The notes beneath the pieces were generated by a model that worked only from the letters and a program-made list of their open reading frames with translations, ran no database searches and was not told where the DNA came from. Made by a program: the position numbers and the translations under genes. Source: Bispira polyomma (Eukaryota). Taken from it: 64,000 bases of DNA. Position 1 is the stretch's first letter. Each line of letters starts with the position of its first letter. Below, piece after piece: positions 5,401 through 64,000 of the stretch. The stretch is from NCBI GenBank assembly GCA_965649765.1, contig OZ287757.1:15128001-15192000 (forward strand). The letters run 5' to 3'.

Positions 5401-6205
5401 ACAAATAAATCCTATATATTATAAAAAAACTTGAGAGTTTTGATTACACACTACAAAATTATAATACTAGTATTTACAACTAGAGAAATGCCTTAGTATG
5501 AATTGCATTACATAATTAGATAATATTATATTATAGAAAAGAGCACTCCTGTGAGTGATATTATAATATTTTATCAAATAACTTTTAAATAAAGGTGTTT
5601 TATAAGAAATTCCAATTACCATTATATTGTAATTGTATAATTTTATCTATTTAAAAAGTATCAAGCATTCTTACAGCTTTAATATTTATTTGTATGCTTT
5701 TAAAAAAATACGAGTGAATACCTTGGCTGGGAATACCTGCATACCTTTACACAGAATATTCCAATTAACAGCAATACCTTATACCAGAATATTTTTTAAT
5801 TTTTATTTGCACTGTTTTAAATTTAAAATGTTACAGGGGTAGACTATGTACAGGAATAGTTAGTGGAAAGTGTTGAAATTATTCTTTAGAAACACCAAAT
5901 TTGACTATATTAGGCAAAGATAGTACAGATTCAAGTGTTACTAGGTGCTGTGTTTAGAATTATTATAAGACATGGAATATTTAATTTTACTATCACATTT
6001 GTGACATCAAAAGAATCAGAAGTCAATTGTGACTAGATACTGCCATCACTGTGGCTAACTTCTTAGTTGGCAGACGTCTAGACTACTGCAATTCCCTTTT
6101 GCTTGAAAGCCAAAAAATACCACATACACAAGTTGCATTCTTTTCAATACCTTGATATAATGAGAAGCCATGTATAGCTTGAGTTGTTTGCAAAGACTAG
6201 AACTA

Positions 6206-6615
6206 TGATTAAGTAGCTTAAGTATTGGTAAGCATGTCCATCCTTTGATGAATGAAATTAAATAGCCACCATTCTATGTTGATTTGTTTGACCTAACTGA
6301 ATGTGTGATTAAGTAGCTAACCTGACTTTTGTGTTGGTAATCATGTCCATCCTCTGATAATTGAATTAAATAGGAAGCATCCACTGTTATTGATTTGTTT
6401 GATCTAACTGGATATGTGATTAAGTAGCTTAACTGGCTTTGATGTTGGACATCAAGTCCATCCTCTGATAATTGAAATTAAATAGGAAGCCGCCACAGTT
6501 ATTGATTAGTTTGATCTAACTAGATGTGTGATTAAGTAGCTAATCTGGCTTTTGTGTTGGTGATCATGTCCATCCTCTGATAATTGAAATTAAATAGGAA
6601 GCCGCCACTGTTATT
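6206..6615. repeat. ~112-bp minisatellite, ~3.8 copies
   Basis: Units start tgattaagtagc at 6206, 6306, 6417 and 6529. Confidence 0.9.
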
Positions 6616-35097: not shown

Positions 35098-35789
35098 TGA
35101 TAACAAAGTTTGAGTGTAGATCATGCCCAGCACAATAAAATATTTTTTAAAAAGGAGGAGAAAATGAAATGGTTAATTATCACACATTTCTGAAATCGTT
35201 GGTAATTGTTTAATGTAAACGTCGTTTTCGGAGCTGGCCTAAATGGGTAATTATATGCTAAGCTAAGTATGTGTAAATAGTGAGATGAAGTTGTGTTGAA
35301 ACACTGAAGGACTAATGTGAAACTTTTGAGACATAAATTTTAAAGCTGTAATGTAGTACTACCTAATGTTCACTACCTTGGGTGAAATATTGTTGATCTG
35401 TACTGGATTATGTAGGCTGAAGTGGTGGAATGTCTTAACTCAGTATGCATCATGTCAATTGCAGCCAATACCAGACTAGCCAAAATTAAGGTGGGTTTTG
35501 CAATTATATATTATAGTCTAAATTAAAGAATGTTATAAGCACCAATCTATGTGAATGCAAACATATGAAGGAATCCCTGGTCATGTTATCACAATACAAA
35601 GTCAAAATAGCTATTACTACATTAATTTATTTTATTTCTAGTTATGAGACAGCCAATTCTTGTTAGTAATTATTGTAGAATTGAGAAAGTTTAATAAAAC
35701 CTATAGTAAAACCCACTCGGCCCTCACAGCTGACCAGGTGAGGAATCCAGCATCCCTAAGCAAATATATGACCTGATACAGCATTAATA

Positions 35790-36530
35790 ATAATTCATGA
35801 AGTAGTAAATACATGTACAGACTCTAATCACTCTAGAGATGTAACTATATTATTTTAAAAAAAACTTTAAGGGTAATATTTTGAAAAGTAAAGTGAATGA
35901 AAATGGAAGAAATGTATTAGTTAATTTCAACTTAATAATGAAATCATCATCATTAGGTGAAGATTCATTCCTTGTGAGGTGTAAAGTCCCGACTTTATCC
36001 TTCTTTATACATAATTTAAGCTTCATCTTTAAGCATATCAAGCGTTTTTTCATGGTCACACAAGAAAATGTGGGAAAATATATGCGTTTGTCTTCTACAT
36101 TTAGAACATATATAGAAGTAATAATGCCAATAGATTAGTCATAGGAATGATTTTTGTCACTGCCTTACAAATCTTATATTCCCTCAAAGTTTTAAATTCA
36201 ATTATATTCACAGCATTTGAGAACACATAATCAACACTAATGTGTTCCATTGTAACTTTAAGTCTGATCATAAATCCGATGTTGAAAATACTATCAAGTC
36301 TAAAGAACAGAAATACAGAATTACTATCCAATGTTCCATTGTTTCAATACACTCTTGGAAAATGTTTCATTCAAAGTTCTATTGCAGTAAACAAATGTCA
36401 GTCAATGTTGTTTTGTTCAATAAAGGCTGTTTTTTCCCCAATGAAGTGTACTTGATACTTTACACATTTCACTGAATTTATCTGTTTATAACTATGGTAG
36501 AATCAATAAACATTAACTCACCTGAAAGCA
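35790..36530. mobile_element. Old L1 endonuclease remnant with an internal inversion
   Basis: + strand SRDVTILF..GRNVLVNF up to ~35945, then the downstream EN sequence (SVDYVFSN) on the - strand. Confidence 0.55.
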
Positions 36531-36805
36531 ATAATGCTATGAAAAGTTACGCACACTTCTGCCTAATTTAAATTTCCAAACCAAAACATTATTTGGTTAA
36601 TGCCATTAGAAGGGCACTATTCAATCATTTTACTTGACAATGTTGACAATCTAACTGAGTAATTGATGTGGATATTTATCATTGAATATTGATATTTCTG
36701 CTAATGTATGTGGTGTGTAAAGTTGAAATATGGTAAAATGTAATGTCAATAACACAAAATAGCTTGACATGTTTCCCATGATTATTGTGTCGCAATATTA
36801 GGAAA

Positions 36806-36964
36806 ATGTTTTGTTACAAACCGAGATATGTTTTGGTTCTTATATTTGGTTTAATCACCACAGCCGTATATGAATTTACCCCAAAAAGGTTAATTGATAA
36901 AAGTATGTTTGTGCAGATACAAAGCCATAGTGGAGGAAAACACAGGAAGGCAGATGATTTTCAC
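36806..36964 (+). CDS. Proposed first coding exon (cytoplasmic tail, signal anchor, stem) of sulfotransferase copy B
   Basis: aaaATG; MFCYKPR followed by hydrophobic YVLVLIFGLITTAVYEF; phase-0 donor CAC|GTAAGC fits the phase-0 acceptor at 60214; lies in the duplicated unit. Confidence 0.65.
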
Positions 36965-37499
36965 GTAAGCAATATCTTACAGTTGTCAACATTTGTTTGG
37001 CATTTTATTTTACAGGAAACCTTTTAGGGTTAGTGTCATATATTATTTATACGCAAGGTATAGTATTCCAAATACAGAAATACATGAATGTTTTTACAAA
37101 TAGGAACAAGGAACAATCGTATTACACATTTTAAGATATAACTAATCTCAGTGTACTTAAATTTAGTATTATTTCTCTCTTTAATGTTCTCTAATATTTC
37201 CACATATTATTTCTTTATGTTATTCTGAAAACATACTTATCACTTACATTTAAAATTCTTGAGGTGCTTTAAGATCACAATTACAGCTACAATGAAGTTT
37301 CTTTTGAAATTACATTAATATTTTTACAAACATTGGAATGACATCCATAAACAGTCAGTCTACTCACAAGTTTTACACAATTGTTATCACTGGTCAATAC
37401 TGTATGTATAAGTTTGTTAAATCTATTATACAACTGCACATTAATTCACTGACACGGATGCATTTTGAAATGAATTAAATATTCTATTTAAAGCAATAT

Positions 37500-38580
37500 T
37501 ACATGTATTTATAGGGTCGCCTATCATTTTTACTTTATAAAATGAAGAAGTTGATATTTTTCTGCACTTAACAGGCATTATATTTATTTAAAATTTCTTT
37601 CATTAAAGATATGACAGGAGATATTAATACACCATCACCAGCATACCATAATCCACCCATGAACATGTTTCCAATATAACAACCTAAACCACTACCATTA
37701 ATTTTTAAACATTTTAAAATAAATTGTGAAAAGCAGAGGGGATAGAATGGCCACTTTTTACACAATTCAACATTTTAACATATTTTGAAACATTAAGGCC
37801 TCATATGATTCAAATTGATTGATGTATGTACATATAAGTCAGCAGTGACATTTAACATAATACCAATACAAAAAATAATCTTGCATACTCTACACGATCG
37901 AAGGCCTTATTGGCATCTAACGTTATTACATTTACATCATTCCTATTTTTTTCAACACCAATGTCGATTGATACTACTAATAGGGCGTTCACACTGTCTA
38001 CGTGCACTCCCCGGCATTGCTGTTTACTCAAGACCTGAGAACGTGGCTGAACTTGGCTGATCAGGCGAGAAAAAGCTGGAAAATGTTCATTACATATATT
38101 TGCATCGCACATTTTTGACCCGTTTTAGCCCCATTTAGCCTTGTTTATGCTCAGGTTATGTTGCGTTACTCAAGTGCTCTCCAGTTATGGCCAGATTACA
38201 AAGTTTTAAGCAGTTTAAGCCCTATTTACACAAGTTCTGAGCAGTTCAACTCCCGCTCATGCCCCAGCATTCCAGCGGCATTGTTGTTTTCTAAAGTTTT
38301 CTCAAGTTCCTTCAAGGTGTGTTTTCTGAGCCGTCCTCCCACAGAAGTTTTGAACATGTTCAAAATTTCCGACTGTAGCTCCTGTTCTTGCCGTTTACCC
38401 CAGTTCACCCCAGTTTTACCACCATTTTTGCCAAGTTCTCATACGTTCTCAGAAGGAATCCGAGAACGTGGACAGTGTGAACACCCCATAAAGGCTATAC
38501 CTCTGTAATTTTTAGAATCGTTTAATTATATCTTCCCATTTTGGGGAATTGGTATAAGTGTTGCTAAAAGTAGGTCACAA
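37500..38580 (-). mobile_element. Decayed CR1/L2-like RT fragment split by a MITE
   Basis: LDANKAFDRV and GCYIGNMFMGGLWYAGD (YADD equivalent). Confidence 0.65.
37981..38488. mobile_element. PIF/Harbinger-type MITE (second, partial copy from 63753)
   Basis: TIRs t(a/g)ggg(c/t)gttcacactgtc / gacagtgtgaacacccca; TAA TSD at 37978-37980 and 38489-38491. Confidence 0.8.
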
Positions 38581-39083: not shown

Positions 39084-40060
39084 TGTGGCGACCTTCAGTA
39101 TAGTCTCAAGTTCAAAATATAAACAGCTGCATCTGAATGTTCAACTGATCTGACTTCGCGTTGTGTTCAAAGTTATAGTGACCAGTTACTGACCACGACT
39201 AAGGTTCCCATAGTATAACAAGAACCTCTTACGATCACGCTTGGTATGAAATGGACACTTGGCTGTATTTCGGGATACTTAATAAAAGATTAAAAGACTA
39301 ATTATAGAGTTAAAATATATCTTCTTTTATTTAAAGACTCATTTTATAACTTCATTACATGTTTTTACAATTGAGCAGAGTTCTCATAACTCACCAGTTT
39401 TAATACACTATTGGATTATATTTAAGACGCAAAGAAACATTAACTGAACCCATCAAACTAGCTAGTACTGGGATGCCATTCACCTAACTTAATGGTGGCC
39501 CCTAAAAGTGCCAGTGCACTGATGCAGGTTCCACCAAACCATAGTGTGAACTGACCTCCCAGTATCTTCTGTAAGTACAGGGCTAAGTATAATTAATATT
39601 TACCATATTTTACTGCGGCAAAAAGAGCTTCCAGTATATATTTCCTGGTATACTGTTTGTTTACTAGTTATACTAGAACACACTCTAGGCCACCCTCTCC
39701 TCCTGCAAAAACCCACTTGTTTATATACACAATTACGGTGCTTCCCGGTGAATCTCCGGATATTCTTATGAAGACCTTGCACCTGTTTACTAATATAACA
39801 TTTACATTTAATATGAATTTGACTGTATACATTTGCTAGCTTATAATTATAACACACTAAATATGCAAGTTTAAAGACAAATTGACCCACAGTAGAAGTC
39901 TTACCTTACATTAAACATTTTAAGATGACCTTAAATTATTGACCAACTTTGCTAAGTTATGTATATTATATACAAAAGCAGTGGGCGGAGAAACCACCGC
40001 AAACACCGACAGCAGTAAAAGAAGGGAATTGATATAGCCTTTCTGTGGCGGGTCGTTTCA
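39084..40060 (-). repeat. 3' LTR of Gypsy-A (977 bp)
   Basis: Matches 46896-47851 with ~13 substitutions and one ~21-bp indel; PPT gatgggggtggaatat at 40061-40076. Confidence 0.95.
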
Positions 40061-40860: not shown

Positions 40861-41655
40861 TTAGTTATACTCATACTCTACATAGTCCAAAAACTGTTGC
40901 TGCTGTAAAATCTTTGACTTTTCCTGTGAGCGTCTTATCTTTGCCTCCGACTCTTTTCTTAGTTGCCGCTCTTCCTGAAGCTTTTGTTTTAAGTCTTTAA
41001 TGGCTGCCTCAGCCTTCTCCCGATCGAAACGATTGAGTGCGTGCCTCGCCTTCTCTCTCTCTTCTATCCAAAATTTTGCCTTGGCCTCAGCTTTTAAAAC
41101 ATTCTTTAACAGAATGTCTCTTGATGTAGAGAGACCTTCATGGTGGTCAATAAGTGGCTCTTGGAGTTGAGGTGCAGAGGTAGTTGCAGTCTCAATCTGA
41201 GTCCTGAGTGGTAGAGCTTTGGGTGTAAGGACGAGCTGGCTTCTCGTCTCCGGTACACTTACTTCTCTCCTGCGGTACCCAGCTGGTGGACATTTTACCC
41301 CAGGGTTGACATAAAAGCGGTTCTTACGCTTTGAGGGAACGGCCTTAGATTCCTGATGATGCTTTTGCAGCGCATGCCTCTTGACATCAGCCGACTGTTT
41401 GAATACTTTTGTGCAGGATGCACATTCAAATAAGATCACTTCATTTTCATGGACTTCTGCCCAGTGACGCATCAGCGCAAAGGGCTTCGAGAATGTTTTG
41501 CCACTGCAGTCGCCCACTGGACATTGCAGTTTAACATTCTCTTGGCCCTCTGCCTCGTCCATCTTTTTCTCTTCAAGAACTTCCTGCCATTCATCATTCT
41601 CTTCCATTTCTCTCAAATTTCTTTCCAGCTCAGTGAAGAGGTCTATTTCCTCTGC
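40861..41655 (-). CDS. Gypsy-A ORF3: acidic N-terminus, two C2H2 zinc fingers, coiled coil (intact frame)
   Basis: CPVGDC..F...FALMRHWAEVH and CASC...F....DVKRHALQKHH; frame open back to the acceptor ttttag|41655; homologous to Gypsy-B ORF3. Confidence 0.85.
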   Translation of the reverse strand, partial: AEEIDLFTELERNLREMEENDEWQEVLEEKKMDEAEGQENVKLQCPVGDCSGKTFSKPFALMRHWAEVHENEVILFECASCTKVFKQSADVKRHALQKHHQESKAVPSKRKNRFYVNPGVKCPPAGYRRREVSVPETRSQLVLTPKALPLRTQIETATTSAPQLQEPLIDHHEGLSTSRDILLKNVLKAEAKAKFWIEEREKARHALNRFDREKAEAAIKDLKQKLQEERQLRKESEAKIRRSQEKSKILQQQQFLDYVEYEYN

Positions 41656-41745
41656 CTAAAATATATAATATTAACACTTCTTTAATTATATGTGACCACC
41701 ATGTTTTATTTGTCTATTTAATTTAGAACTTAACATGGAATATCA

Positions 41746-44700
41746 CTACATTTGAACTTGAACACCTGCTTCTTTATTTCTGGATTCTAACCAGCTGACA
41801 GGAGTTTCATGATCATAGCTCTTAATGTGGTCTACATGTAGCGTAATAACTCTAGACTCAGGCCTTTCCTGAACCCGGTAATTCAGATCACCCAGTTTCC
41901 CAACAACTAGATATGGTCCTTTCCAAGCCCTACCAAACTTTAGTCTACCACTTGGGAGATGATAGACCCAAACCCAATCTCCCACCTTAAACTTACGGAT
42001 CTCAGAGTTCCTGTCATATGAGCGTTTTTGCCTCAGGGCACTTGCTTTGACAGCTTCTCTCACTTTCTCAAAAGCATTAGTCATTGTAAGTCTGATCCAC
42101 TCAACATACTCAATTGGACGCTGGGGAACTTCCCCCATGTTACTGGATCCATACATGAGATCTATTGGAAGGTTTATCTCTCTGCCAAACATTAGAAGGT
42201 TGGGTGTACTTTGTGTGCTTTCATGGACTGATGCTCTGTATGCCATCATGACATAAGGCAAATGATCATCCCAGTCCGGTTCACAAGAACAAAAGGATTT
42301 AAGCATAGACTTCAAAGTACGATTGTACCATTCAACAAGGCCATCTGTCTGAGGTCTATAACGTGAAGTCCTAACTTTTTTCATGTCTAGAAGATTACAC
42401 ATTTCCTGAAAAAGGTGCGACTCAAAATTCCTGCCCTGGCACCACTTGAGGTTGCATCACTATTATTAATAGTCTCAATACAACTGGGACTCCTACTTAA
42501 GGCTGGATCCCGACTAACAGAAGGAGATTTGTCAGTGTCTAAAGCAGAACCACTTGGTTTTTGAGGACGATGGTCACCCACGCTAGTCGCCATGCTAGCT
42601 GACTTTGTCCCCCCAGAGTTAGAATCAGCCTGATCCTGATCTCTATGCCCTTTAGCTTTGCTTCTAGTTATCACACAAACACAGTGGTCTGCTGATAATG
42701 CACAGTCTTCACAGTCACCCCTCTTACATCTTCTGGGTGGTCGTCGCGACAGACCATCAGCATTTAAGTGCACTGCCCCCTTACGGTGTTGCGTCTCAAA
42801 ATCATAGGAACTTAATACCGCTAACCACCTAGCTAACATACCCTCTGGCTCCCTAAAGTTAACTAACCATCGCAATGAGGAATGGTCTGTCCTTAAGATA
42901 AACCTCCTTCCCCATAGATAATGATGAAACTGTTTGATGAACACTACTGCTGCCAGCAGTTCTCTCATAGTAACACAATAGTTTTGCTGAGTTTTGCTAA
43001 GTGTCTTGCTGGCAAAGCACAAAACCTTTTCTTGGCCATTTTCCTGAATTTGTGACAAGACTGCACCTATTCCACAGAGACTAGCATCAGTGTCAAGCAC
43101 AAATATACCATCTCTGTTTGGATAGGCAAGCACGATTGAGTCACTGCTCAGTTTATCCTTTAGCACAGTAAATGCTTCTTCACAGTTTTTGTCCGACACA
43201 TATTTGACATTTTTCTTTGTTAATGCATGCAGTGGCGATGCAATACTTGAGAATGACTGGATAAATTTTCTATAATATGAAGCATAACCGAGGAAACTCC
43301 TAACCTGCTTAATGTTCTGGGGCCTTGGCCAATCTCTAATGGCTTCAAGCTTTTCAGGGTCACAAGACACACCTTCCCTAGACATAATATGTCCTAAGAA
43401 TGTAACTGATTCCTAAAACAACTTACACTTCGAAGGTTTCAACACTAGTCCTGCCCTTCTTAACCTCTGGAATACCAATTCAACATTTTCAAGACTTTCT
43501 GGAAAGGATTGTCCAAAAGTTACAATGTCATCTAAGTATAAAACAGCCTTAGACCATTGTAACCCACTTAAAACTAACTCCATAAGAGATTGAAACGTTC
43601 CAGGAGCATTTGATAAGCCAAACGGAAGAACAGTAAACTGCCTCAACCCCCTCCTAGAACTAAAAGCCGTTTTACACTTGTCATCAGGATGCATAGCAAC
43701 CTGATAGTACCCGTGGGCCAAATCCATGGTAGAAAGTACTTGGATCCAGATAGAGAATCTAGGCACTCTTGAATGCGGGGCAGAGGCACCGCCGATTTCC
43801 TCATGACCATATTTATCGCACGATAATCCACACACACCCTTATATCGCCAGTTTTCTTGACCACTATGACCAAAGGAGATGACCAGGGGCTATTGCTTGG
43901 TTCAATTATACCCTCAGCCTCCATCTTGTCAAGTTCCTTTTCAACTAACTCTTGTTGTGCAATAGGTTGGCGACGGGGACGTTGTTTTATAGGTACAGCA
44001 TTACCTGTGTCAATGTGATGTTTAACAAGGTCAGTTCTACCAAGTTTACCTTCAGGACTTTTGAAAATATCTTGGTACCGATGGGTACCCCCTCCTAGAA
44101 CTAAAAGCCGTTTTACACTTGTCATCAGGATGCATAGCAACCTGATAGTACCCTTGGGCCAAATCCATGGTAGAAAGTACTTGGATCCAGATAGAGAATC
44201 TAGGCACTCTTGAATGCGGGGCAGAGGCACCGCCGATTTCCTCATGACCATATTTATCGCACGATAATCCACACACACCCTTATATCGCCAGTTTTCTTG
44301 ACCACTATGACCAAAGGAGATGACCAGGGGCTATTGCTTGGTTCAATTATACCCTCAGCCTCCATCTTGTCAAGTTCCTTTTCAACTAACTCTTGTTGTG
44401 CAATAGGTTGGCGACGGGGACGTTGTTTTATAGGTACAGCATTACCTGTGTCAATGTGATGTTTAACAAGGTCAGTTCTACCAAGTTTACCTTCAGGACT
44501 TTTGAAAATATCTTGGTACCGATGTATGAGTCGGTTGAGCTTCTTAGTTCAGTTTCAGTCAGCTTATCAGAGGTCCGCTCAACCAGAGGTTTCAAGTGCT
44601 CTGGAAGCTCTAGTAAGTCGGTGTCCTCTACTTTCCCTAACCTAGCCACAGAAGCATCATCTGAGGTTTTAACATTTGGTTCAAAAGGTTTTATTTGGTC

Positions 44701-45424
44701 TACTGGCTCAAGTATAGCAATCTTGGTATCTTTACCAACCTGAATAAGACTAGAACCTACATTAGCTACCCTTATCAGCACAGTGTTCCTTTCTACCTTT
44801 ACCAAAGATTTAGCTACCAGTAACCCAGTGGTGTCAGTCAATGTGAGGGGAGGCTCAACTAGACCTATGTCAAAGTCTGGACCACAGTGACTAAACTGTA
44901 TCTGACAGCTAATGATCATTTCATGCTTAGGTGGTACAGAAATAGTCTTGCTTGTATGGACATTTGCAAACTTTATACCACCCCTTTTATACATGCTGAC
45001 AGTATGACCATTACAGTTAATTGTGCCCTTAGCTGCATTTATGATGCATTCATGCTTTTCCATGAAGTCAAGACCCAAAATTGTGCTCTTGTCACCCAGT
45101 GATACAACTTTCACTGGTACCTTATATTGGATATCCTGAACTACAAGATTCATACATGCTTCTCCGAGGACATCCATTACCTCCCCATTGGCATTTTTCA
45201 GGATCAAATTAACCCTTTCCAATGGTGGCCTGTCACATTCAAGAATGCAGTCATAAAACAGGCTATCAACTATAGTGTATGTTGACCCAGTATGTCTCCA
45301 GTCCCATAACCTCACCTCCTATATACCAACAAGATGAACTAATAGTTTCAATAATCCCCTCAGATGGCCCCTTATACTTTTCTGCTGAGAATGTGGCCCC
45401 ATTCTCAGCCTCACCTAGTTTAAC
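41746..45424 (-). pseudogene. pol: Gypsy-A pol (PR-RT-RH-IN), disrupted
   Basis: RVCVDYR, YLDD, TDAS, ADGLSR, RPQTDG, GPY; small deletion at the protease DTG, 441-bp duplication in RT, deletion of the integrase N-terminal half. Confidence 0.93.
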
Positions 45425-46809
45425 TTAGCTTTGCCTTGGTTGTCAATCCCCCCCTTATTTGCATGGTTCTTGGGGCAGTCCCGAGAATAGTGACCCTTTT
45501 CATGACACCTGTAACATTCAACTTCTGTTAATTTCCGACCCCTGACCTGGTAAGTACCCTTATTTGTATGGTCATGATTCGGCTTATTTGGCGTCATAGT
45601 CTTAAGTTGGTCAGTTATCTGATCTATTTGGTCACGATTTTGCTTCAGTGCAGACAAAATATCTTGCAGAATTTTGTCTTCACTTCTATCTTCCACAGCA
45701 AAAACTCTCCCACCAACTGGCTTTACAAACTTCTTTTGTGAAGTCTGTTCAAAACTTTCATACTCAGTTGCTAATGAGATAGCCTCATGTAAACTACGGG
45801 GATGTGCAAATTGCACATGCTTTTTAATATCAATGTTCCCCAAGCCATTTATGAACTGGTCAAGAACCCACTGTTCCTGTGCCTTAAGACTAATCGTAGG
45901 GAATGCCTTAGATGCTAATCTCCTTAGGGCATACCCATACTGCATGGGAGTTTCACTGTCTTTCTTGACCCGGTTCCTGAACTCAATCTTGTATGTAACC
46001 TCCCGTTCTGCAGGGTTAAACCTGTTTTCTAATTCGGTTATTAGGGCATTGTAATCATGAGTATCAATGTATGGAGCCAAATCACTGAAAACCCTTTGGG
46101 CCTCCCCCTGTAAACTCATGATTAACTGAGTTGCTCTTTCATCATAACCCCACCCATTCCAGTTTGCTACAGTCTCAAAATGGTTCATATAATCATTCCA
46201 TTCTGTTGACTGCCCATCAAACTTATCAGGGTCACGTTGCCTGCGGTAATTAGTTCGTGCTGGCTCTCTACAGCCTAAACCATGATTCTCACGCTGAGGT
46301 TTGAACCTACGATCCCCATTACCATTTAGCCTTATACTGTGTTGGTGCCCACCTAGACTAGTCTGCCTTAAACTCCTAGCCCTAAGATCCTGACCAACCT
46401 GCCTATTTTCATAGCCCTTTTGTGAATCTGGAACTCAAGGCTGTGCCTCAGGCCTTAAAGGCTGATTGTGCCTCTCTGCCTGTGTCTGAAAAATGCCTGG
46501 ATCACTATGATTGACCCCTACTTTTCCCTTAATTGGCTTAACAGGAGTAGAATGGATGATGTCATCCAGCTGTAAACCACAGGATTCATCATCGCTACGA
46601 TTATTCTCATTTCTGAGCCCTAAACCCCTTAAGTCAGGTGGAGCTGTGGTTGCAGATGTAGGCCTTTGATATCTGACTGGAACAGTATTAAACTGTACTT
46701 CGGAATCAAGCCCTGTCCCAATAGACTCCCCATCTTGCCTTCTGTGAGGCCACCTGGGTATCCATTCCCGAACAGTCTGCATCCAGCTCCTTGAGCCTGA
46801 CTTACTCAT
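45415..46809 (-). pseudogene. gag: Gypsy-A gag with one in-frame stop (46435-46437)
   Basis: KFDG..W..Y..HFE.VA.WNGW, QFINGL, CYRCHEKGHYSRDC zinc knuckle; the two track ORFs are in the same frame. Confidence 0.92.
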
Positions 46810-46870
46810 ACTGCCCTAATATTCTTAAACTCACAAAAAAAAAATCCCTCTTAAATACAGTGACATACAA

Positions 46871-46888
46871 ATCCTGGTCACGGCACCA
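46871..46888 (-). promoter_or_regulatory. Primer-binding site, tRNA-His (Gypsy-A)
   Basis: TGGTGCCGTGACCAGGAT is complementary to the invertebrate tRNA-His 3' end (..AUCCUGGUCACGGCACCA). Confidence 0.88.
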
Positions 46889-46895
46889 TTAATTC

Positions 46896-47851
46896 TGTGG
46901 CGACCTTCAGTATGCAGCTGCATCTGAATGTTCAACTGATCTGACTTTGCGTTGTGTTCAAAGATATAGTGACCAGACACTGACCACGACTAAGGTTCCC
47001 ATAGTATAACAAGAACCTCTTACGATCACGCTTGGTATGAAATGGACACTTGGCTGTATTTTGGGATACTTAATAAAAGATTAAAAGACTAATTATAGAG
47101 TTAAAATATATCTTCTTTTATTTAAAGACTCATTTTATAACTTCATTACATGTTTTTACAATTGAGCAGAGTTCTCATAACTCACCAGTTTTAATACACT
47201 ATTGGATTATATTTAAGACACAAAGAAACATTAACTGAACCCATCAAACTAGCTAGTACTGGGATGCCATTCACCTAACTTAATGGTGGCCCCTAAAAGT
47301 GCCAGTGCACTGATGCAGGTTCCACCAAACCATAGTGTGAACTGACCTCCCAGTATCTTCTGTAAGTACAGGGCTAAGTATAATTAATATTTACCATATT
47401 TTACTGCGGCAAAAAGAGCTTCCAGTATATATTTCCTGGTATACTGTTTGTTTACCAGTTATACTAGAACACACTCTAGGCCACCCTCTCCTCCTGCAAA
47501 AACCCACTTGTTTATATACATAATTACGGTGCTTCCCGGTGAATCTCCGGATATTCTTATGAAGACCTTGCACCTGTTTACTAATATAACATTTACATTT
47601 AATATGAATTTGACTGTATACATTTGCTAGCTTATAATTATAACACACTAAATATGCAAGTTTAAAGACAAATTGACCCACAGTAGAAGTTTTACATTAC
47701 ATTAAACATTTCAAGATGACCTTAAATTATTGACCAACTTTGCTAAGTTATGTATATTATATACAAAAGCCGTGGGCGGAGAAACCACCGCAAACACCGA
47801 CAGCAGTAAAAGAAGGGAATTGATATAGCCTTTCTGTGGCGGTTCGTTTCA
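46896..47851 (-). repeat. 5' LTR of Gypsy-A (956 bp)
   Basis: Adjacent to the PBS; TATATAA at 47763-47757. Confidence 0.95.
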
Positions 47852-48234: not shown

Positions 48235-50012
48235 GATCAATATCAGGCTTAAAAGTAAACACCTACAAAACTAAAATTATTTGGATTGGCGAAAAAAAAG
48301 AACTCAAAAGTAAAATTCCATGTCGACAACAGGCTGATATGGGGCACAACAGAGTTTACTTTACTTGGCATCCACTTCTCAGTTGACCTGGATAAAATTA
48401 TTAATATGAACTATCAACTTGTCATCCCTAAAGTAGAAAAATGTTTAAAAAACTGGAGAAATCGGTATCTAACACCAATTTGTAAAATTACTGTCATAAA
48501 AACCTAAATTATACCCAAGTTTAATCACTTGTTTATTTCGATTTCAAGTCCAAAAGCAGAATTTGTTGAACAGTTGAATAGCCCTCTGTACAATTTTATT
48601 TGGGACAATAAACCTGATAAAATTAGGCGATCGCATCTCAATAAGGACAACACACAAGGTGGTCTTAAAATGGTGGATATAAATAATTTTATTAAAGAAC
48701 TTAAGATAACATGGATTCGAAGGTTATACCAAAATAAAAAAGCCCCTTGGATACATCTAGCTAAAATTAACATCAAATCTATTGAAAAATTGCTATATTT
48801 AGGATCTGAGTGGACCCTAAAAGTCACAAAGGAAATTAATAACAAATTATGGCAGGATGTGTTAGTTACTTGGACCGATTTTCTGGAAATAATTTCCTCC
48901 AAAAATACTTTCATTGAAAAATTATATGGCCCACTCTGGTACAATCCAAATATTTTTAAAGTACCATTCATCATCCCTCAATTGTATAATAGTGGGATAA
49001 TCTCGCCTATTGACTTAATTTCAAATTAAGGGAATATTATTTCCCAAGGAGATATTAAACATAGACACAATATTCCAATCCACTTTTTAGTCTAGCACAG
49101 ATTGACAACTGGCCTGAAAGAATATCTCAAAAACTTAAATTTTGTGCAAACCCAACCTGAACGACCATATTTTCAATACCACATAAAATTACTCTCAAGG
49201 TCTAAAAAAAGGAGTCAAGATTTTTATCATACCCTAAACAATAATATGGATGATAAATCAATGTACAGAATCGAATGGGAAAACACTTTGAACATAACTA
49301 TAGATCAAAACAATTGGAAAAATGTATTCCGACTGTGCTTTAAAAGTATAAAAGACAACAACCTTATTTGGTTTCAGTACAGACTTTTATTCATTATTCT
49401 TGGTACAAAACATTATTTGAGAAAAATTTATCAGTCTTATAACGCCAAATGTTCTTTTTGCATAAAAAGGGGATGAAACTATATTACACCTATTTGTATT
49501 GTGTCCAAAATCAGTTAATTTCTGGAACTGTATACAAACATGGCTTAAACGTGTAATTGGAGTTGATTTGTCTCTGGCCCCCCTACATATATTATTTGGA
49601 GAATGTCAATTGGGAATAGCCCACTCATCAAAAAATGTTGTCTATATGACTGCCAAACAATATATCTTTAATTGCTCTATAAATAGTGCCAGACTAAACA
49701 TTTTTGAATACCAGGCTTTCTTGCGGTCAAAATTTATAGAACAAAGATACTTGTCAATAATTGAAATACAATTTGAAAAATTTATCAAAAAGTGGTCAGT
49801 GTTTGCTAACCTTTTTCAATAATTTGTAGTATTTAAATTTATCTTGTTAGTTTTACATTGTACATGTACTTGTATGTGATATCAGTTGATATATATTGAA
49901 AGTCTTAATTAGAAGTTTGCCTATCTTTGACTTCCCAAGTATTATAAATGAATAGATATTGTATATTTATAATATTGTGAATAAGAATAAATCAACTTGC
50001 AGGGGGAAAAAA
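48235..50012 (+). mobile_element. L1/Tx1 3' half, degenerate
   Basis: ISGLKVN..KT, WDNKPDKI, GGLKM, CSFC..ETI.HLF..C. Confidence 0.85.
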
Positions 50013-50208: not shown

Positions 50209-51429
50209 TGTAACCACCCTGTTTAGCCCAGCTGACCAAATTAAGATATAAGTTTCAATAAAGTATCAGTTCACGTTGTGTTCAAGTAGGCAGGTCGCCA
50301 GATAACAGATTCGTATAGGCAAGGTCACTGAATAAGCTGGGGGTTATTGAAGCCTGGATCAATAAGCTCACAAGATGACTTTTAATTACAAATTAAGAAC
50401 AACAAAATTAACTTCAATATGTATATTATAAATGAAAAAGTGTACATATAATTATACGGTACAATAACCCAGAAAAACAACAATATAAATGCACCAGTCC
50501 TGTGTACTGATATAAATTTAAGACAACTAGGTGGCAGTGGCAAAATACCAAGAACAACACTATATATTCTACAATTAATGTCAGCCTATTTAATTACAGT
50601 CTATATAGTTCAACAAGCTAGGCCTGACAAAACATACCGCCTGACAAATATTCAAGTTACATTATAATAAACACCTAGACCGGCGAAACAAGGCAGCAAA
50701 TTACATGTGTCTATATAAGTAATTATTAGTTACTATATCTCACAACTAAAATATAACACAAGTTGCAAGAACTGTCAAAAACATGAGGTTTTGTTGATCA
50801 ACAAAAAGGGAGGGAAAACCCCCCAATCTGACAATAATAAGCAAATAAATAGCAAAACCTCAATTAAATTGGATAAAAGTTACACACTATATTTGAATAC
50901 ATTAATGACATAAATTAAGAGATTTGGATCCGAAAAGAATGAACCGAACCGGAATAAATTAGAATATTATAAGAATAAATCCGAGAAATGGATGTACCTT
51001 TCGTTGTCCCCGGCTAGAACACCACTGAATAATAACTACACCTAGTCTTATATAGAGACCAAACGACGAGCTTCGGGATGTGAATCGGCTGTTTCCGGAA
51101 GAAAAAGCCCCCACAATGCATCACTCGGCTCCCGAAATGGCCCGAATACCGCTCGGAACACACCGCCCTAATAGTAAACAACACCGACCGGTGTATATAT
51201 AAGGTGATCACGTCATCACAAGATGGCGGATCTCGCTTCCGGGAAAATGTTATAAAACAGATGAAAATGCTGCGATTTTAGTGAATGACAACCTTATTTT
51301 AAAGTAAAATATTAGGATATACCTAGCATACAAGTAAGTGAGCAATTCTCGCTTCATAACTTCCATTATTAAGAGATATATCGTAAGCACGAGTCCCCAA
51401 TTAGTACTCGCGATGACTGGGTCATCACA
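50209..51429 (-). repeat. 3' LTR of Gypsy-B (1221 bp, complete)
   Basis: Matches 58991-59690 apart from a 520-bp block; PPT gcaggggggaa at 51430-51440. Confidence 0.95.
50996..51229 (-). promoter_or_regulatory. Putative Gypsy-B LTR promoter: YY1-like and CRE-like sites, TATA, Inr, splice donor
   Basis: CCGCCATCTT (51229-51220), TGACGTG, TATATAAG (51054-51047), TCAGT 28 nt further on (51028-51024), AAG|GTACAT at 50997. Confidence 0.55.
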
Positions 51430-51989: not shown

Positions 51990-52932
51990 TCAACAAAATT
52001 TATTCTTCCCCCAAATTAAGTCTCCCAAAACCATTTCTTGAAAACTAAAAATATCGACATTGTCCAAAACACTCTTGCCCTTTACCATTTGTCCTTTCAA
52101 CTTCCTGATCTCCTCCTCCATCCTCCGTCTTTCAGAACGTTCTCCCTTAAGTTGCTCTGTCAATCCTTTCTCCCTTAGTCTTTGTTCTTTTACCTCCAGC
52201 TTCTTTAATTTGTCCTTGGCACACTTTTCCTTCTGTGACCAGAACTTCATTTTTTCCTTGGCCAACAAAATGTCTCTGATCAGTTTTTTTTTCTGCTGTT
52301 TCTGCTGTGCTCAGACATGCACCTTCTACTCTCCCGGCATGTGGCTCTGGGACATCTGGCAGCATTGGGTGGTCTTGTTCTTCAAGGTAGACTTCTACAT
52401 CTCTTTCTAGTACTTCTTCGTCTTTTGTAATTTCGACTTTTACAAATTTGGGGTCGATATCCATAACGGATTGGCATGGCACTGTCTCTGAAATAATCGG
52501 CTTGTCAGTGCCAGCCACCGACTTTGGCTTCGGACCCACAAATTCTCCTGGGTTAAGATATGTTTTATTTGCTACAATTTTCGTTCTAAGGTTCTCCCCC
52601 GAGCTCGAAACTTTGGCCTCAGTAACATTTAAATGATGTATTTTGACCAGATGTCTTTCCAGGTCGTATGGCCTTTTGAATGTCCTACAAGAAGTGCCTG
52701 TGGTGCACTTGTACAGGGTAATGAAGGGCGAGTGGACATCAGCCCAGTGTCTGCTTAAGGCGAACTTCTGTCCAAAGGACGTATTACGGCGTAAGCAATC
52801 TGGTACCAGACAGCTGTACCTTCCTCCACTCTTGTTCCAGCCTCGTTTGGCGATGACCTCTGCCCCTCCACCTTCCTCATCCATCTTATCCTCAAAGGCT
52901 CCCAAATCGAATACAAACTCGTTGACAGACAT
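51990..52932 (-). CDS. Gypsy-B ORF3: two C2H2 zinc fingers and coiled coil; one frameshift in an A9 run (~52284-52292)
   Basis: CLVPDC..F..KFALSRHWADVH and CTTGTSC..F....DLERHLVKIHH; second frame LAKEKMKFW..LTEQLKGERSERRRMEEEIRKL aligns with Gypsy-A ORF3. Confidence 0.82.
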
Positions 52933-52981
52933 TTTGTTTTACTGAAAAACATAATACAGAAAAGAATATAAGGCCTGAGCC

Positions 52982-58966: not shown

Positions 58967-58984
58967 ATCCTGGTCACGGCACCA
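58967..58984 (-). promoter_or_regulatory. Primer-binding site, tRNA-His (Gypsy-B)
   Basis: 18-mer identical to the Gypsy-A PBS. Confidence 0.88.
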
Positions 58985-58990
58985 AAATTC

Positions 58991-59690
58991 TGTAATCACC
59001 CTATTTAGCCCAGCTGACCAAATTAAGATATAAGTCTCAATAAAGTATCAGTTCGCGTTGTGTTCAAGTAGGCAGGTCGCCAGATAACAGATTCGTATAG
59101 GCAAGGTCACCGAATAAGCTGGGGGTTATTGAAGCCTGGATCAATAAGCTCACAAGATGACTTTTAATTACAAATTAAGAACAACAAAATTAACTTCAAT
59201 ATGTATATTATAAATGAAAAAGTGTACATATAATTATACGGTACAATAACCCGGAAAAACAACAATATAAATGCACCAGTCCTGTGTACTGATATAAATT
59301 TAAGCCAACTAGGTGGCAGTGGCAAAATACCAAGAACAACACTATATATTCTACAATTAATGTCAGCCTATTTAATTACAGTCTATATAGTTCAACAAGC
59401 TAGGCCTGACAAAACATACCGTCTGACAAATATTCAAGTTACATTATAATAAACACCTAGACCGGCGAAACAAGGCAGCAAATTACATGTGTCTATATAA
59501 GTAGTTATTAATTACTATATCTCACAACTAAAATATACCACAAGTTGCAAGAACTGTCAAAACATGAGGTTTTGTTGATATACCTAGCATACAAGTAAGT
59601 GAGCAATTCTCGCTTCATAACTTCCATTATTAAGAGATATATCCTAAGCACGAGTCTACAATTAGTACTCGCGATGACTGGGTCATCACA
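58991..59690 (-). repeat. 5' LTR of Gypsy-B (700 bp, internally deleted)
   Basis: ~14 substitutions versus the 3' LTR; lacks the equivalent of 50799-51318. Confidence 0.93.
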
Positions 59691-60213: not shown

Positions 60214-61210
60214 CCAGGGACAAGCCTTAATAATGAGAACTTCTCAACAACTGGGGAGATGTGCATGTTTAACGAAACCGGGGCATCTAGGCAGCTGATT
60301 TACAACATGGTGCCCAAATGTGGGAGCTTGAGCTTTAGATATTTGATTTATAGACTGCATAAAGACAACCATTTCACATCTGTGGAAAGAAAGTACAGTG
60401 ACAAGCATATTACTGTGCCATATCATTTGAGGTAATGCAGTATCTCCAGTAATAATACAAATTATGACCATTTTAGCAATGTCTAAATACCAATACAAGT
60501 GCTTAAATGACTAAAATGTCTTTTATACTTCTGTACACAGCTTAGAAGGTATTTCAAAAACTGTAGGGGGTCAGATACTAATACTCAAAGAGCCTTGGTT
60601 ATACTTTGGACACCTGCATTTCATTGACTTCCAAAAACTAAACTACAGTCTCACCCCAATGTACATCAACATCATTCGTGACCCCATTGAACGGCTGATA
60701 TCCTTCTATTATTACTGAAGGAAAAATGGACGACTCAGCTATGGTAGACCATTGAGAGAACTCTTTTCCAAAAACCAGAAGGAACTTTTGGGACGCATGA
60801 ATATGACTTTCAATGAATGCGTTTCACAAGAAGATGTGGAATGTGCTGACCATAGATTTCTGTTTCAAATGATACTCTATTTCTGTGGACAGGATGAGTA
60901 CTGTATATATCCCAGTCAGACGGCCCTGGATCAAGCAAAGACAAACCTGGACAAACACTTTGCAGTGACTGGCTATATGGAGAAATACACAGAGTTTGTG
61001 GAGGTCGCAGAGTACCTATTCCCAAGATACTTCAGGGGCGCCTTGCTACGGCTGAAAAGCAGGGGAGATGTTGTGATCAATAAAGGTTGTGGTAAGAAAG
61101 ATACAAGCCAAAAGTCCAGACAGATACTATTTGCAAGAAAGGATATTAAGTTGGAATATGACTTTTACACATATGTGAAGGAGAAATTTGACCAGACTAA
61201 CCAAAATTGA
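60214..61210 (+). pseudogene. Sulfotransferase copy B catalytic exons (60214-60431, 60541-61210) with premature TGA at 60716-60718
   Basis: Acceptor ttcgcag|, donor ag|gtaatg, acceptor acacag|; same intron positions and phases as copy A; YNMVPKCGS, YFGH, IRDPIERLISFYYY*RKNG. Confidence 0.8.
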
Positions 61211-64000
61211 GGTGGGTCCTGCAATTATATATTATAGTCTAAATTAAAGAATGTTATAAGCACCAATCTATGTGAATGCAAACATATGAAGGGATCCCTG
61301 GACATGTTATCACAATTAAAAGTAACCTGCTGGTGAGCCCAGTGCTCACCACAGACCCTTAGAACTATTACTATGTTAATTTATTTGTATTATATAACAG
61401 CCAATTCTTGTTAGCAATTATTGTAGACTTGAGAAAGTTTAATAAAATCTATATTAAAACCCACGCGGCCCTCACAGATGACCAGGTGAGGAATGCAGCA
61501 TCCCTGGTACAGGTGAGGAATGCAGCATCCCTGGTACAGCATAAATTATTAATCATGAAGTATTTAATACATGTACAGACTCTAATCACTCTAGAGATGT
61601 AACTATAGGTTTTAAAAGAAAACTTTAAAGGTAAAATTTTCAACAGTAAAGTGAATGAAAATGGAAGAAATGTATTGGTTAATTTCAACTTAATAATGAA
61701 ATCATCACTATTAGGTGAAGATTCATCCCTTGTGAGTTACAAAGTCCCGACTACATCCTTCTTTATACATAATAAAAGCTTCATCTTTAAGCATATCAAG
61801 CTTTTTTTCATGGTCACACAAGAAACTTTGGGGAAATATATGCGTATTTCTTCTACATTTGGAACATATATAGAAATAATAGTGATGATTTCATTATTAA
61901 GTTCGAAATTAACCAATACAATTCTTCCATTTGTATTCTTTTACATATATCTCCGAATCATCCTAATCCTTTTTGTAGCCAATAGATTAGTCATAGGAAT
62001 TATTTTTGTCACTTCCTTACAAATCTTATATTCCCTCAAAGTTTTAAATTCAATTATATCCCCAGCATTTGAGAACAGATGATCAACACTAATGTATTCC
62101 GTTATAACTTTAGGTCTGATCATAAATCCGATGTTGATACTTTACACATTTCACTGAATTTATCCATTTATAACTATGGTAGAATCAATAAGCATTAACT
62201 CTCCTAAAAGAAATAATGCTATGAAAAGATACGCACACTTCTGCCTAGTTTAAATTTCCAAACCAAAACATTATTTGGTTAATGCAATTAGAAGGGCACT
62301 ATTTAATCATTTTGTTTGAACATCAATTAAATGTTGATAATCTAACTGAATAATTGATGTGGATATTTATCATTGACTATTGTATGCTAATGTATGTGGT
62401 GTTTAAAGTTGAATATAGTAAAATGTAAAATTAATAAAACAAAATAGCTTGACATGTTTCCCGTGATTATTGTGTGGCAATATTAGGAAAATGTTTGGTC
62501 TAAGTTACAAACCGGAATGTGTTGGTTGTTATAATTTGTTTAATCACCACAGCCATGTATGAATTTACCCCAAAAAGGTTAATTGATAAAAGTATGTTTG
62601 TGCAGATACAAACCCATAATGGAGGAAAACATAGGAAGGAAGATGGTTTTCACGCAAGCAATATCTTACAGTTGTCAACATTTGTTTGGCATTTTATTTT
62701 ACAGAAAACCTTTTAGGGCTAGTGTTATATATTATTTATACGCAAGGTATAGTATAACAAATACAGAAATACATGAATGTTTTTACAACTAGGAACAAGG
62801 AACAATCGTATTACACATTATTTACAGTTTAGCAATAACATGTATTTTTATGCAAACCTTCATGATTTACAGAAACATTTTAACATACAACTAACCTCAG
62901 TGTACTTAATTTTAGTATTATTTCTCTCTTTGATACTCCACATATTATTTCTTCATATTATTCTGAAAACATACTTATCACTTACATTTAAAAAATTTTA
63001 AGGTGCTTTAAGATCACAATTTTAGCTACAATGAAGTTTCTTTTGAAATTACAATAATATTTTCACAAACATAGGAATGATATCCATAAACAGCCAGTCT
63101 ACTCACAAGTTTTACACAATTGTTATCACTGGTCAATATTGTATGTATAAGTTTGTTGAATCTATTATACAACTGCACATTAATTCACTGACACGGATGC
63201 ATTTTGAAATGAATTAAATATACTATTTAAAGATAAATATTACATGAATTTATAGGGTCGCCTATCATTTTTACTTTTGGAAAGTGAAGAAGTTGATATT
63301 TTTCTGCACTTAAGACATTATATTTATGTCCGAAAATTTCTTTCATTAAAGATAGGACAGGAGATATTAATACACCATCACCAGCATACTCTAATCCACC
63401 CAGGAACATGTTTCCAATATAACAACCTAAACCACTACCATTAATTTCAAACATTTTCAAATAAATTGTGAAAAGCAGAGGCCACTTTTTACACAATTTA
63501 ACATTTTAACATATTTTGAAACATTAAGGCCTCATATAATTCAAATTGATCGATGTATGTACATATAAGTCAGCAATGACATACAACATAATACTAATAC
63601 AAAAAAATAATCTTGCATACTCTACACGATCGAAGGCCTTTTTGGTATCTAACATTATTACATTTACATCATTCCTATTTTTTCCTTCATTTTACACCAT
63701 TGTCGATTTATTGGTTGACTTTTAAAACCAAAATGTAAATTGATACTACTAATGGGGTGTTCACACTGTCCACGTTCATGCCCTGGCATCGTCCAGGCAT
63801 TGCTGTTTACTCAAGACCTGATAACTTGACTGAACTTGGCTGATCGGGCAAGAAAAAGCTGGAAAATGTTCATTTGCATTTACATATATTTGCATCGCAC
63901 GTTTTTGACCCGTTTTAGTCTCATTTAGCCCTGTTTATGCTCAGGTTATGTTACTCAAGTGCTCTCTAGTTCTGGCCAGATTACAAAGTTTTAAGCAGTT
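61191..64000 (+). repeat. Segmental duplication copy 2 (paralogous to 35470-38215); includes a 27-bp tandem duplication at 61483-61536 and a partial MITE from 63753
   Basis: Direct alignment with 35470-38215. Confidence 0.92.
62491..62653 (+). pseudogene. First exon of a further sulfotransferase copy (C); frameshifted, with a GC donor
   Basis: Paralog of 36806-36964; the ATG is out of frame with the TM segment; donor is CAC|GCAAGC. Confidence 0.55.

Follow-up and report, generated by a model that had tools for sequence, protein, structure and literature searches.

A zinc-finger third open reading frame, probably expressed by splicing from the long terminal repeat, in defective Ty3/gypsy retrotransposons of Bispira polyomma

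Results

Two defective Ty3/gypsy elements with a third open reading frame

The window analysed here is a stretch of 64,000 nucleotides (nt) of the Bispira polyomma genome (assembly GCA_965649765.1, contig OZ287757.1, positions 15,128,001 to 15,192,000) in which two defective long terminal repeat (LTR) retrotransposons of the Ty3/gypsy type (Metaviridae), referred to as A and B, lie on the minus strand (Table 1). Both have TG...CA LTRs, a short target duplication, a primer-binding site (PBS) matching the 3' end of a host tRNA-His and a polypurine tract, and in both the Pfam matches follow the gypsy order of gag and then protease, reverse transcriptase (RT), RNase H and integrase. Behind the integrase each element carries a third open reading frame (ORF), here called ORF3. 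An initial annotation of the window proposed that ORF3 is expressed, like retroviral env and accessory genes, from an RNA spliced from a very small LTR exon to an acceptor at the start of the frame. The proposed splicing finds comparative support in five families of elements and in L147, a contig from another sample, but the donor site in A probably has to be corrected; the parallel with env messages holds for the predicted mode of expression and not for the protein, which is of a zinc-finger/coiled-coil type.

Table 1. Coordinates of features of elements A and B in the window (a slash marks a predicted splice junction)
Feature	Position	Strand	Remarks
Element A	47851-39084	-	Target duplication ACTA (4 bp)
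A 5' LTR (TG...CA)	46896..47851	-	98.6% identity to A 3' LTR
TATA-like box and three-codon exon of the initial annotation	47701..47763 (exon 47709-47701)	-	Donor 0.85 bits; no A' counterpart
Second TATA box, TATATAAA	47511..47518	-	LTR +334
Candidate donor ATG/GTAAAT	47389..47397 (GT at 47394)	-	Phase 0 with the acceptor; first ATG past the second TATA box
A AATAAA	47117..47122	-	Only one in the A LTR; the 47397 donor lies upstream of it
U5 motif, TGAACACAACG	46950..46960, also 39169-39159	-	Common to all five families
A PBS	46871..46888	-	Complementary to the 3' end of host tRNA-His
A gag	45415..46434	-	Retrotrans_gag-like, CCHC knuckle
A pol	41746..45318	-	Interrupted by frameshifts and stops
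A 3' splice-site-like tract	41656..41685	-	Ends in TAG at the ORF3 start; moderate score
A ORF3	40861..41655	-	264 codons; first ATG is codon 17
A 3' LTR	39084..40060	-	Polypurine tract just before, about 40078-40064
Element B	59690-50210	-	Target duplication ATAT; same plan as A
B 5' LTR	58991..59690	-	Lacks about 517 nt including TATA, initiator (Inr) and donor; PBS at 58984
B ORF3 exon	52147..52941	-	Acceptor CAG, 9-nt leader, own ATG
B 3' LTR	50210..51429	-	Includes the TATA/Inr/donor block
B 3' LTR promoter/donor block	50991..51054	-	TATATAAG (51054), TCAGT (51028), AAG/GTACAT (GT 50997), ATG-free exon

ORF3 encodes a zinc-finger/coiled-coil protein

The ORF3 proteins of A and B are homologous (32% over 117 amino acids [aa], E 1e-15) and have in common a motif N-x-x-Y-x-(N/D)-P-G, which reads N-x-x-Y-x-N-P-G in A. 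The copy of B in the window has a frameshift near its 3' end and comprises 263 codons, against 312-314 in several relatives. In A the protein consists of an acidic N-terminus (17 of the first 40 residues), two C2H2 fingers (residues 45-99) and a C-terminal helix (179-263). The fingers follow the pattern C-x(2-4)-C-x12-H-x(3-5)-H with a beta-beta-alpha fold, and each of the residues C45, C50, H64, H69, C78, C81, H94 and H99 is conserved in at least 90% of 75 rows. The predicted structure comprises the two fingers and one long helix, with a predicted local distance difference test score (pLDDT) of 84 that rises above 90 at the finger residues. A Pfam search returned C2H2-type matches only and no envelope (Env) family; a profile search of the PDB matched CTCF and tramtrack, and the fingers of these two proteins were also the top PDB rows by fold in Foldseek (E about 0.06), although no match at E <= 0.001 was obtained with the model among PDB or viral structures. 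A search of the ESM Atlas gave only unnamed or generic C2H2 clusters. ORF3 is hence a zinc-finger/coiled-coil protein and not an Env protein. A comparison of A with its sister family A' over codons 17-81 (proportion of synonymous differences [pS] 0.75, of nonsynonymous differences [pN] 0.13) shows the signature of purifying selection.

Homologues of this protein are widespread. A profile built from eight ORF3 rows matched 1354 proteins at E <= 0.001, many of the weaker matches being generic finger proteins, and 122 at 1e-10. Among the 150 homologues listed, 58 are 200-400 aa long and 93 have a C-x-V-x-C...HW..H finger. Between 3 and 20 copies of the finger module per protein were counted in 18 of these 150, with lengths of up to 4729 aa (P0005, P0006, P0007, P0009, P0011, P0022-P0026 and others); these giant proteins may be host captures or the source of the ORF3 module. 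A search of this genome with one query found no multi-module protein, and every match to P0045, P0028 and P0017 fell on an already known ORF3, with no further family or host gene. A search with one alignment as the query revealed no related loci in metagenome, viral or genome contigs.

A conserved acceptor-like site at the start of ORF3

Directly before each ORF3 there is an acceptor-like sequence, ...tattttag/GCA at 41655 in A and ...tttttcag/taaaacaaaATG at 52941 in B, as the initial annotation had noted. The ORF3s found in searches of the genome fall into five families (A, A', D, B and C), and the conservation of the acceptor among family copies, which had been suggested as a check, was borne out. 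Among 89 rows covering ORF3 5' ends (with one locus counted twice and several nearly identical copies of D), AG stands at the start of the ORF3 exon in 73 of the 75 that reach it, including 8/8 A rows and 2/2 A' rows. When scored simply by pyrimidine tract (the splice-site matrices used here being approximate), the ORF3 acceptor ranks first of all AGs scanned in five of seven elements (D, B, B', C and L147); in B it is first of 582. A branch-point-like CTAAY is present 32-40 nt upstream in B', C and L147. The ORF3 homologue of L147 is about 29% identical to that of A, and behind the integrase this contig has CTAAC, a T-rich tract and CAG/ATG GCT GAA.

That the frame of A is open from the junction, as had been pointed out, is true but partly circular, because the ORF is delimited by an in-frame stop, and this stop is the TAG of the acceptor. 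The homologous junction reads TAG/ATG GCA GAG in D and TAG/GCA GAG in A and A'; the aligned sequences of the latter two are without an ATG where D has one. The 16 codons before the first ATG of A differ from those of copy L016 with a pS of 0.33 and a pN of 0.10, and from those of L031 with values of 0.51 and 0.19, which leans towards coding constraint on these few sites. Taken as a prediction, the acceptor is well supported.

Candidate donors within the LTRs

For the other end of the intron, the initial annotation pointed to a TATA-like box in the A LTR (TATATAAT at 47763), followed by a three-codon exon, ATG TTT AAT/GTAA (ATGTTTAATGTAA at 47709 and 39918). These sequences exist, the box having an upstream GC box and a TCAAT about 31-33 nt downstream, but a second TATA box (47518) and an ATG/GT (47397) had been overlooked. 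The position of the second box in the LTR matches that of the TATA boxes of the other four families (A' +277, D about +342, B +375 and C +376), each of which stands behind CG-rich upstream motifs, and for this reason it is likely to be the LTR promoter of A. The three-codon exon would then be placed in U3; its donor is weak (10th among the 78 GTs of the 5' LTR), A' has no counterpart, and it is likely not the first exon of ORF3.

The best candidate for the end of exon 1 in A is instead ATG/GTAAAT at 47397 (3.14 bits, rank 4 of 78 GTs). The A' LTR has the same sequence 135 nt past its TATA box, and in both families this site holds the sole ATG between TATA+25 and the donor. It is present in 8 of the 9 distinct A' LTRs that cover the position. 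The A and A' LTRs are otherwise unalignable; the site falls within their longest common word (13 nt) and is, besides the U5 motif, the only BLAST match between them (E 0.01).

Two further observations concern these LTRs. A subgroup of older A-type LTRs, 84-88% identical (L089, L090, L091, L093 and L094), has lost the ATG and kept GTAAAT, and is possibly a non-coding derivative. A strong donor-like site, CTG/GTGAGT (47185, 5.74 bits), is found upstream of AATAAA in A, and A' likewise has a second strong donor-like site upstream of AATAAA (L016, LTR +684).

For B, the view that the first exon is non-coding (AAG/GTACAT, 50997) and that ORF3 has its own ATG is supported by comparison with C: B and C have the common spacing TATA-57 nt-G/GTACATCC, the predicted exon being ATG-free, and the donor GT is kept in 17/19 B and 17/17 C LTR rows. 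The donor of D, AAG/GTGATT at +536, has its GT in 29/29 rows, two of which contain an ATG two codons upstream. These within-family counts come from close copies and carry little weight. D, B and C thus combine their own ORF3 ATG with an ATG-free donor in nearly all copies. In A, A', D and C the candidate donor precedes AATAAA, and B has no AATAAA past its donor. The promoter and donor sequences had been described for the LTRs of both elements; they are present, but in B only in the 3' LTR, downstream of ORF3, about 517 nt including the donor having been lost from the 5' LTR. With this block missing from its 5' LTR, the copy of B in the window could not produce the predicted spliced message there.

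Relationships among the families

A midpoint-rooted tree of 26 RNase H rows, in which B is represented by one row and which excludes eight copies whose matches were short or missing, places A, A' and D together, in no firm order (100/99), apart from B and C (98/95). As an ATG follows the acceptor in D, B, C and L147, an LTR-borne ATG in A and A' is likely to be the derived state. Six copies of family D lie within about 215 kb of contig starts and have common lesions (C3:133837, C7:102318, C8:214000, C11:80798, C13:132272 and C15:131680 in G000), as expected of subtelomeric duplication and not of separate insertions. One copy of family C carries an unrelated insertion of ~580 nt (L059:6175-6760, oriented) between the acceptor region and the ATG.

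Read data

Three read runs from one study, none of them listed as RNA, have a flat depth over the whole element, raised on the LTR, and appear DNA-like. No LTR-to-ORF3 joint was among the joints listed for these runs (15 of 24 in one list, 4 in another), which in DNA-like data has no bearing on expression.

State of the elements and other features of the window

The pol region of A contains a 441-nt tandem duplication and a 704-nt deletion in the integrase, and both rearrangements recur as joints in public contigs, possibly from the sample used for the assembly itself. Among named RT relatives, the nearest come from bivalves (52-53% identity). The U5 motif is the best-kept stretch of the LTR across the five families, and its core, CACAACGC, shows complementarity to the host tRNA-His that matches the PBS, namely to the anticodon arm. 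This complementarity suggests a second contact with the primer.

A pair of direct repeats (35470-37875 and 61191-63606, 90-94% identical, ~25.7 kb apart) brackets A and B. Plus-strand ORF pieces at 38119-38508 and 48508-49822 lie on either side of A, whose insertion site may be an older element. A tandem array (6179-6597, repeat unit about 111 nt) and two runs of broken ORFs at 13131-16686 (plus strand) and 20091-23552 (minus strand) are probably other repeats.

Discussion

Our results suggest that ORF3 is probably made through splicing from the LTR to ORF3 at the sites described above. Transcription would start about 30 nt past a TATA box at LTR +280 to +375, and a single LTR promoter would provide two RNAs: one of full length, serving gag, pol and packaging, and one for ORF3, spliced from a donor inside the LTR to the acceptor-like site just behind the integrase. 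In A and A', exon 1 would end in ATG/GT (47397-47394 in A) and supply the start methionine only, while in D, B and C it would be non-coding and ORF3 would use its own ATG, 0-11 nt past the acceptor. As the intron would comprise the whole PBS-gag-pol stretch, reverse transcription could not be primed on the spliced RNA. None of the 89 ORF3 5'-end rows has LTR sequence within 400 nt upstream, and such an absence of spliced genomic copies would be expected because the spliced RNA would lack the PBS.

Several observations weigh against this proposal. The acceptor is only moderate in A (rank 18 of 530 AGs) and sixth of 417 in A', and codon 17 of A is an in-frame ATG that precedes both fingers. The test on the 13-nt word is modest, since 19 of 500 shuffles (about 4%) reach this length and ATGGTAA occurred in both shuffled LTRs in 41 of 2000. 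Conservation within families had also been suggested as a check on the donor; the B site is kept, but within A the ATG/GT at 47397 is intact in 31 of 39 LTRs and the three-codon exon site in 30 of 38, which does not discriminate between them, and six older A LTRs are without the ATG. Three stronger donors, without an ATG, lie further downstream in the A LTR, and there is another phase-0 ATG/GT near the start of gag (46325, 1.88 bits).

It is conceivable that there is no LTR exon at all: a promoter within the element, in the spacer or in late pol, would drive ORF3, whose translation would begin at its own ATG (in A, codon 17), and the tract resembling an acceptor would be an AT-rich leader. B, C, D and L147 do have an ATG of their own, a TA run is present in D some 45 nt upstream, and four A-type proteins from other sources have been called from an internal methionine. 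However, these methionines do not align to one position, and an internal promoter would leave unexplained the YAG at the exon start in six families, the branch-like motifs, the coding bias before codon 17 and the occurrence of ATG/GT in exactly the two ATG-less families; we regard this as unlikely. Alternatively, the acceptor could be used with a donor downstream of the PBS, in the leader or early gag, as for the env of errantiviruses; Drosophila elements are reported to use upstream exons before or within gag (PMC12992720, in its available text), and phase-0 candidates exist at 46521 and 46322. These candidates score lower (1.8-1.9 bits), and the cross-family signal found sits in the LTR, making such a donor quite improbable. 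The route as first proposed, with a start past the TATA-like box at 47763 and the three-codon exon spliced to 41655, would benefit from the GC box and TCAAT that accompany the box, from being in phase 0 and from a site intact in most A LTRs, and in the 3' LTR of the window its donor reaches 4.14 bits. This strong form is present only in that LTR and in one deletion variant, the 5' LTR form scoring far lower; A', whose ORF3 is likewise ATG-less, has no such exon; the GC-box segment in A' and D has no TATA box behind it; and U3 would be only about 120 nt. These points make the three-codon exon very unlikely. Read-through from pol was rejected as a source of ORF3, the spacer containing several in-frame stops.

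The role of the ORF3 protein can be approached from its layout, and it is most likely an element-encoded nuclear regulator. Given expression, it could well be a transactivator of the LTR, a guess that rests on the acidic N-terminus, the fingers of DNA-binding type, the coiled coil and the matches to pairs of fingers that bind DNA. RNA binding is known for some C2H2 fingers, and the protein may, with a lesser but real likelihood, be an RNA export or packaging factor resembling Rev or CERV, or a factor for chromatin targeting or against silencing. A donor in R together with a strong acceptor would mean that an intron-holding RNA must leave the nucleus, and Cer1 is described as achieving this with CERV, which is made from a spliced mRNA in the env position (PMC10309623, available text). 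Against an export function stand the closest matches by sequence and fold, which are DNA-binding finger pairs, though generic ones, and the number of acidic residues at the N-terminus.

Drosophila errantiviruses already provide examples of third ORFs spliced to tiny first exons, and Cer1 provides one of a spliced non-Env regulator. In insect errantiviruses (gypsy, ZAM, springer and idefix) a third ORF behind pol is likewise expressed from a spliced subgenomic RNA, which is only predicted here, and the upstream exon can encode a short peptide or, in the springer subclade, just 'AU' (PMC12992720, available text). They differ in that the ORF3 described here encodes a zinc-finger/coiled-coil protein without an Env family match and in that the donor favoured here is within the LTR, upstream of the PBS, although LTR-internal donors of gypsy may already be known. 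[quoted passage not shown] In contrast, exon 1 would add at most one methionine here, and homologues are widespread.

A donor in the LTR upstream of the poly(A) signal has been described for foamy virus, in which U1 binding suppresses polyadenylation in the 5' LTR (PMC3694450, available text). In four of the families described here a candidate donor stands before AATAAA and would follow the predicted start site, but foamy viruses are Retroviridae and not Ty3/gypsy elements. Their transactivator Tas is not known to be related in sequence to the ORF3 protein. In domain order and PBS the elements resemble molluscan Gypsy clades (MolGy, Cigr-1 and users of tRNA-His such as Gypsy-39_CGi), and a bivalve Gypsy with tRNA-His has been named (PMC10886601, available text). 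We found no description of a Gypsy third ORF encoding a C2H2/coiled-coil protein in the literature covered, to which Repbase, subscription journals and supplements did not belong; Repbase entries may note the ORF. The main text of PMC6238403 does not contain 'zinc', 'ORF' or 'splic', and term look-ups in the available text of that paper and of PMC10886601, PMC3383448, PMC2774666, PMC13228809 and PMC8556966 returned no description of such an ORF.

A broader reading, which we put forward tentatively and consider doubtful as a whole, is that these elements belong to an undescribed 'complex' Ty3/gypsy clade, widespread in molluscs or their kin, that encodes its own zinc-finger transactivator on a fully spliced mRNA and has an LTR-internal donor as in foamy viruses. 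This donor may also hold off polyadenylation in the 5' LTR; in one lineage the start codon would have moved across a 5.7-kb intron into the LTR; and giant proteins would carry the double-finger module in as many as about 20 copies.

Most of the additional ORFs that LTR retrotransposons carry in the env position have no known function (PMC10309623, available text). The ORF3 described here has a recognisable fold, purifying selection and a precise predicted route of expression. If the start codon is in the LTR, the regulator would be made only from spliced RNA, and if ORF3 regulates its own element, the regulatory layout of a complex retrovirus would have been reached without an envelope. The genome holds dozens of A and A' LTRs; with an ATG in the LTR, host exons downstream of a solo LTR of these families would be provided with a promoter, a start codon and a splice donor.

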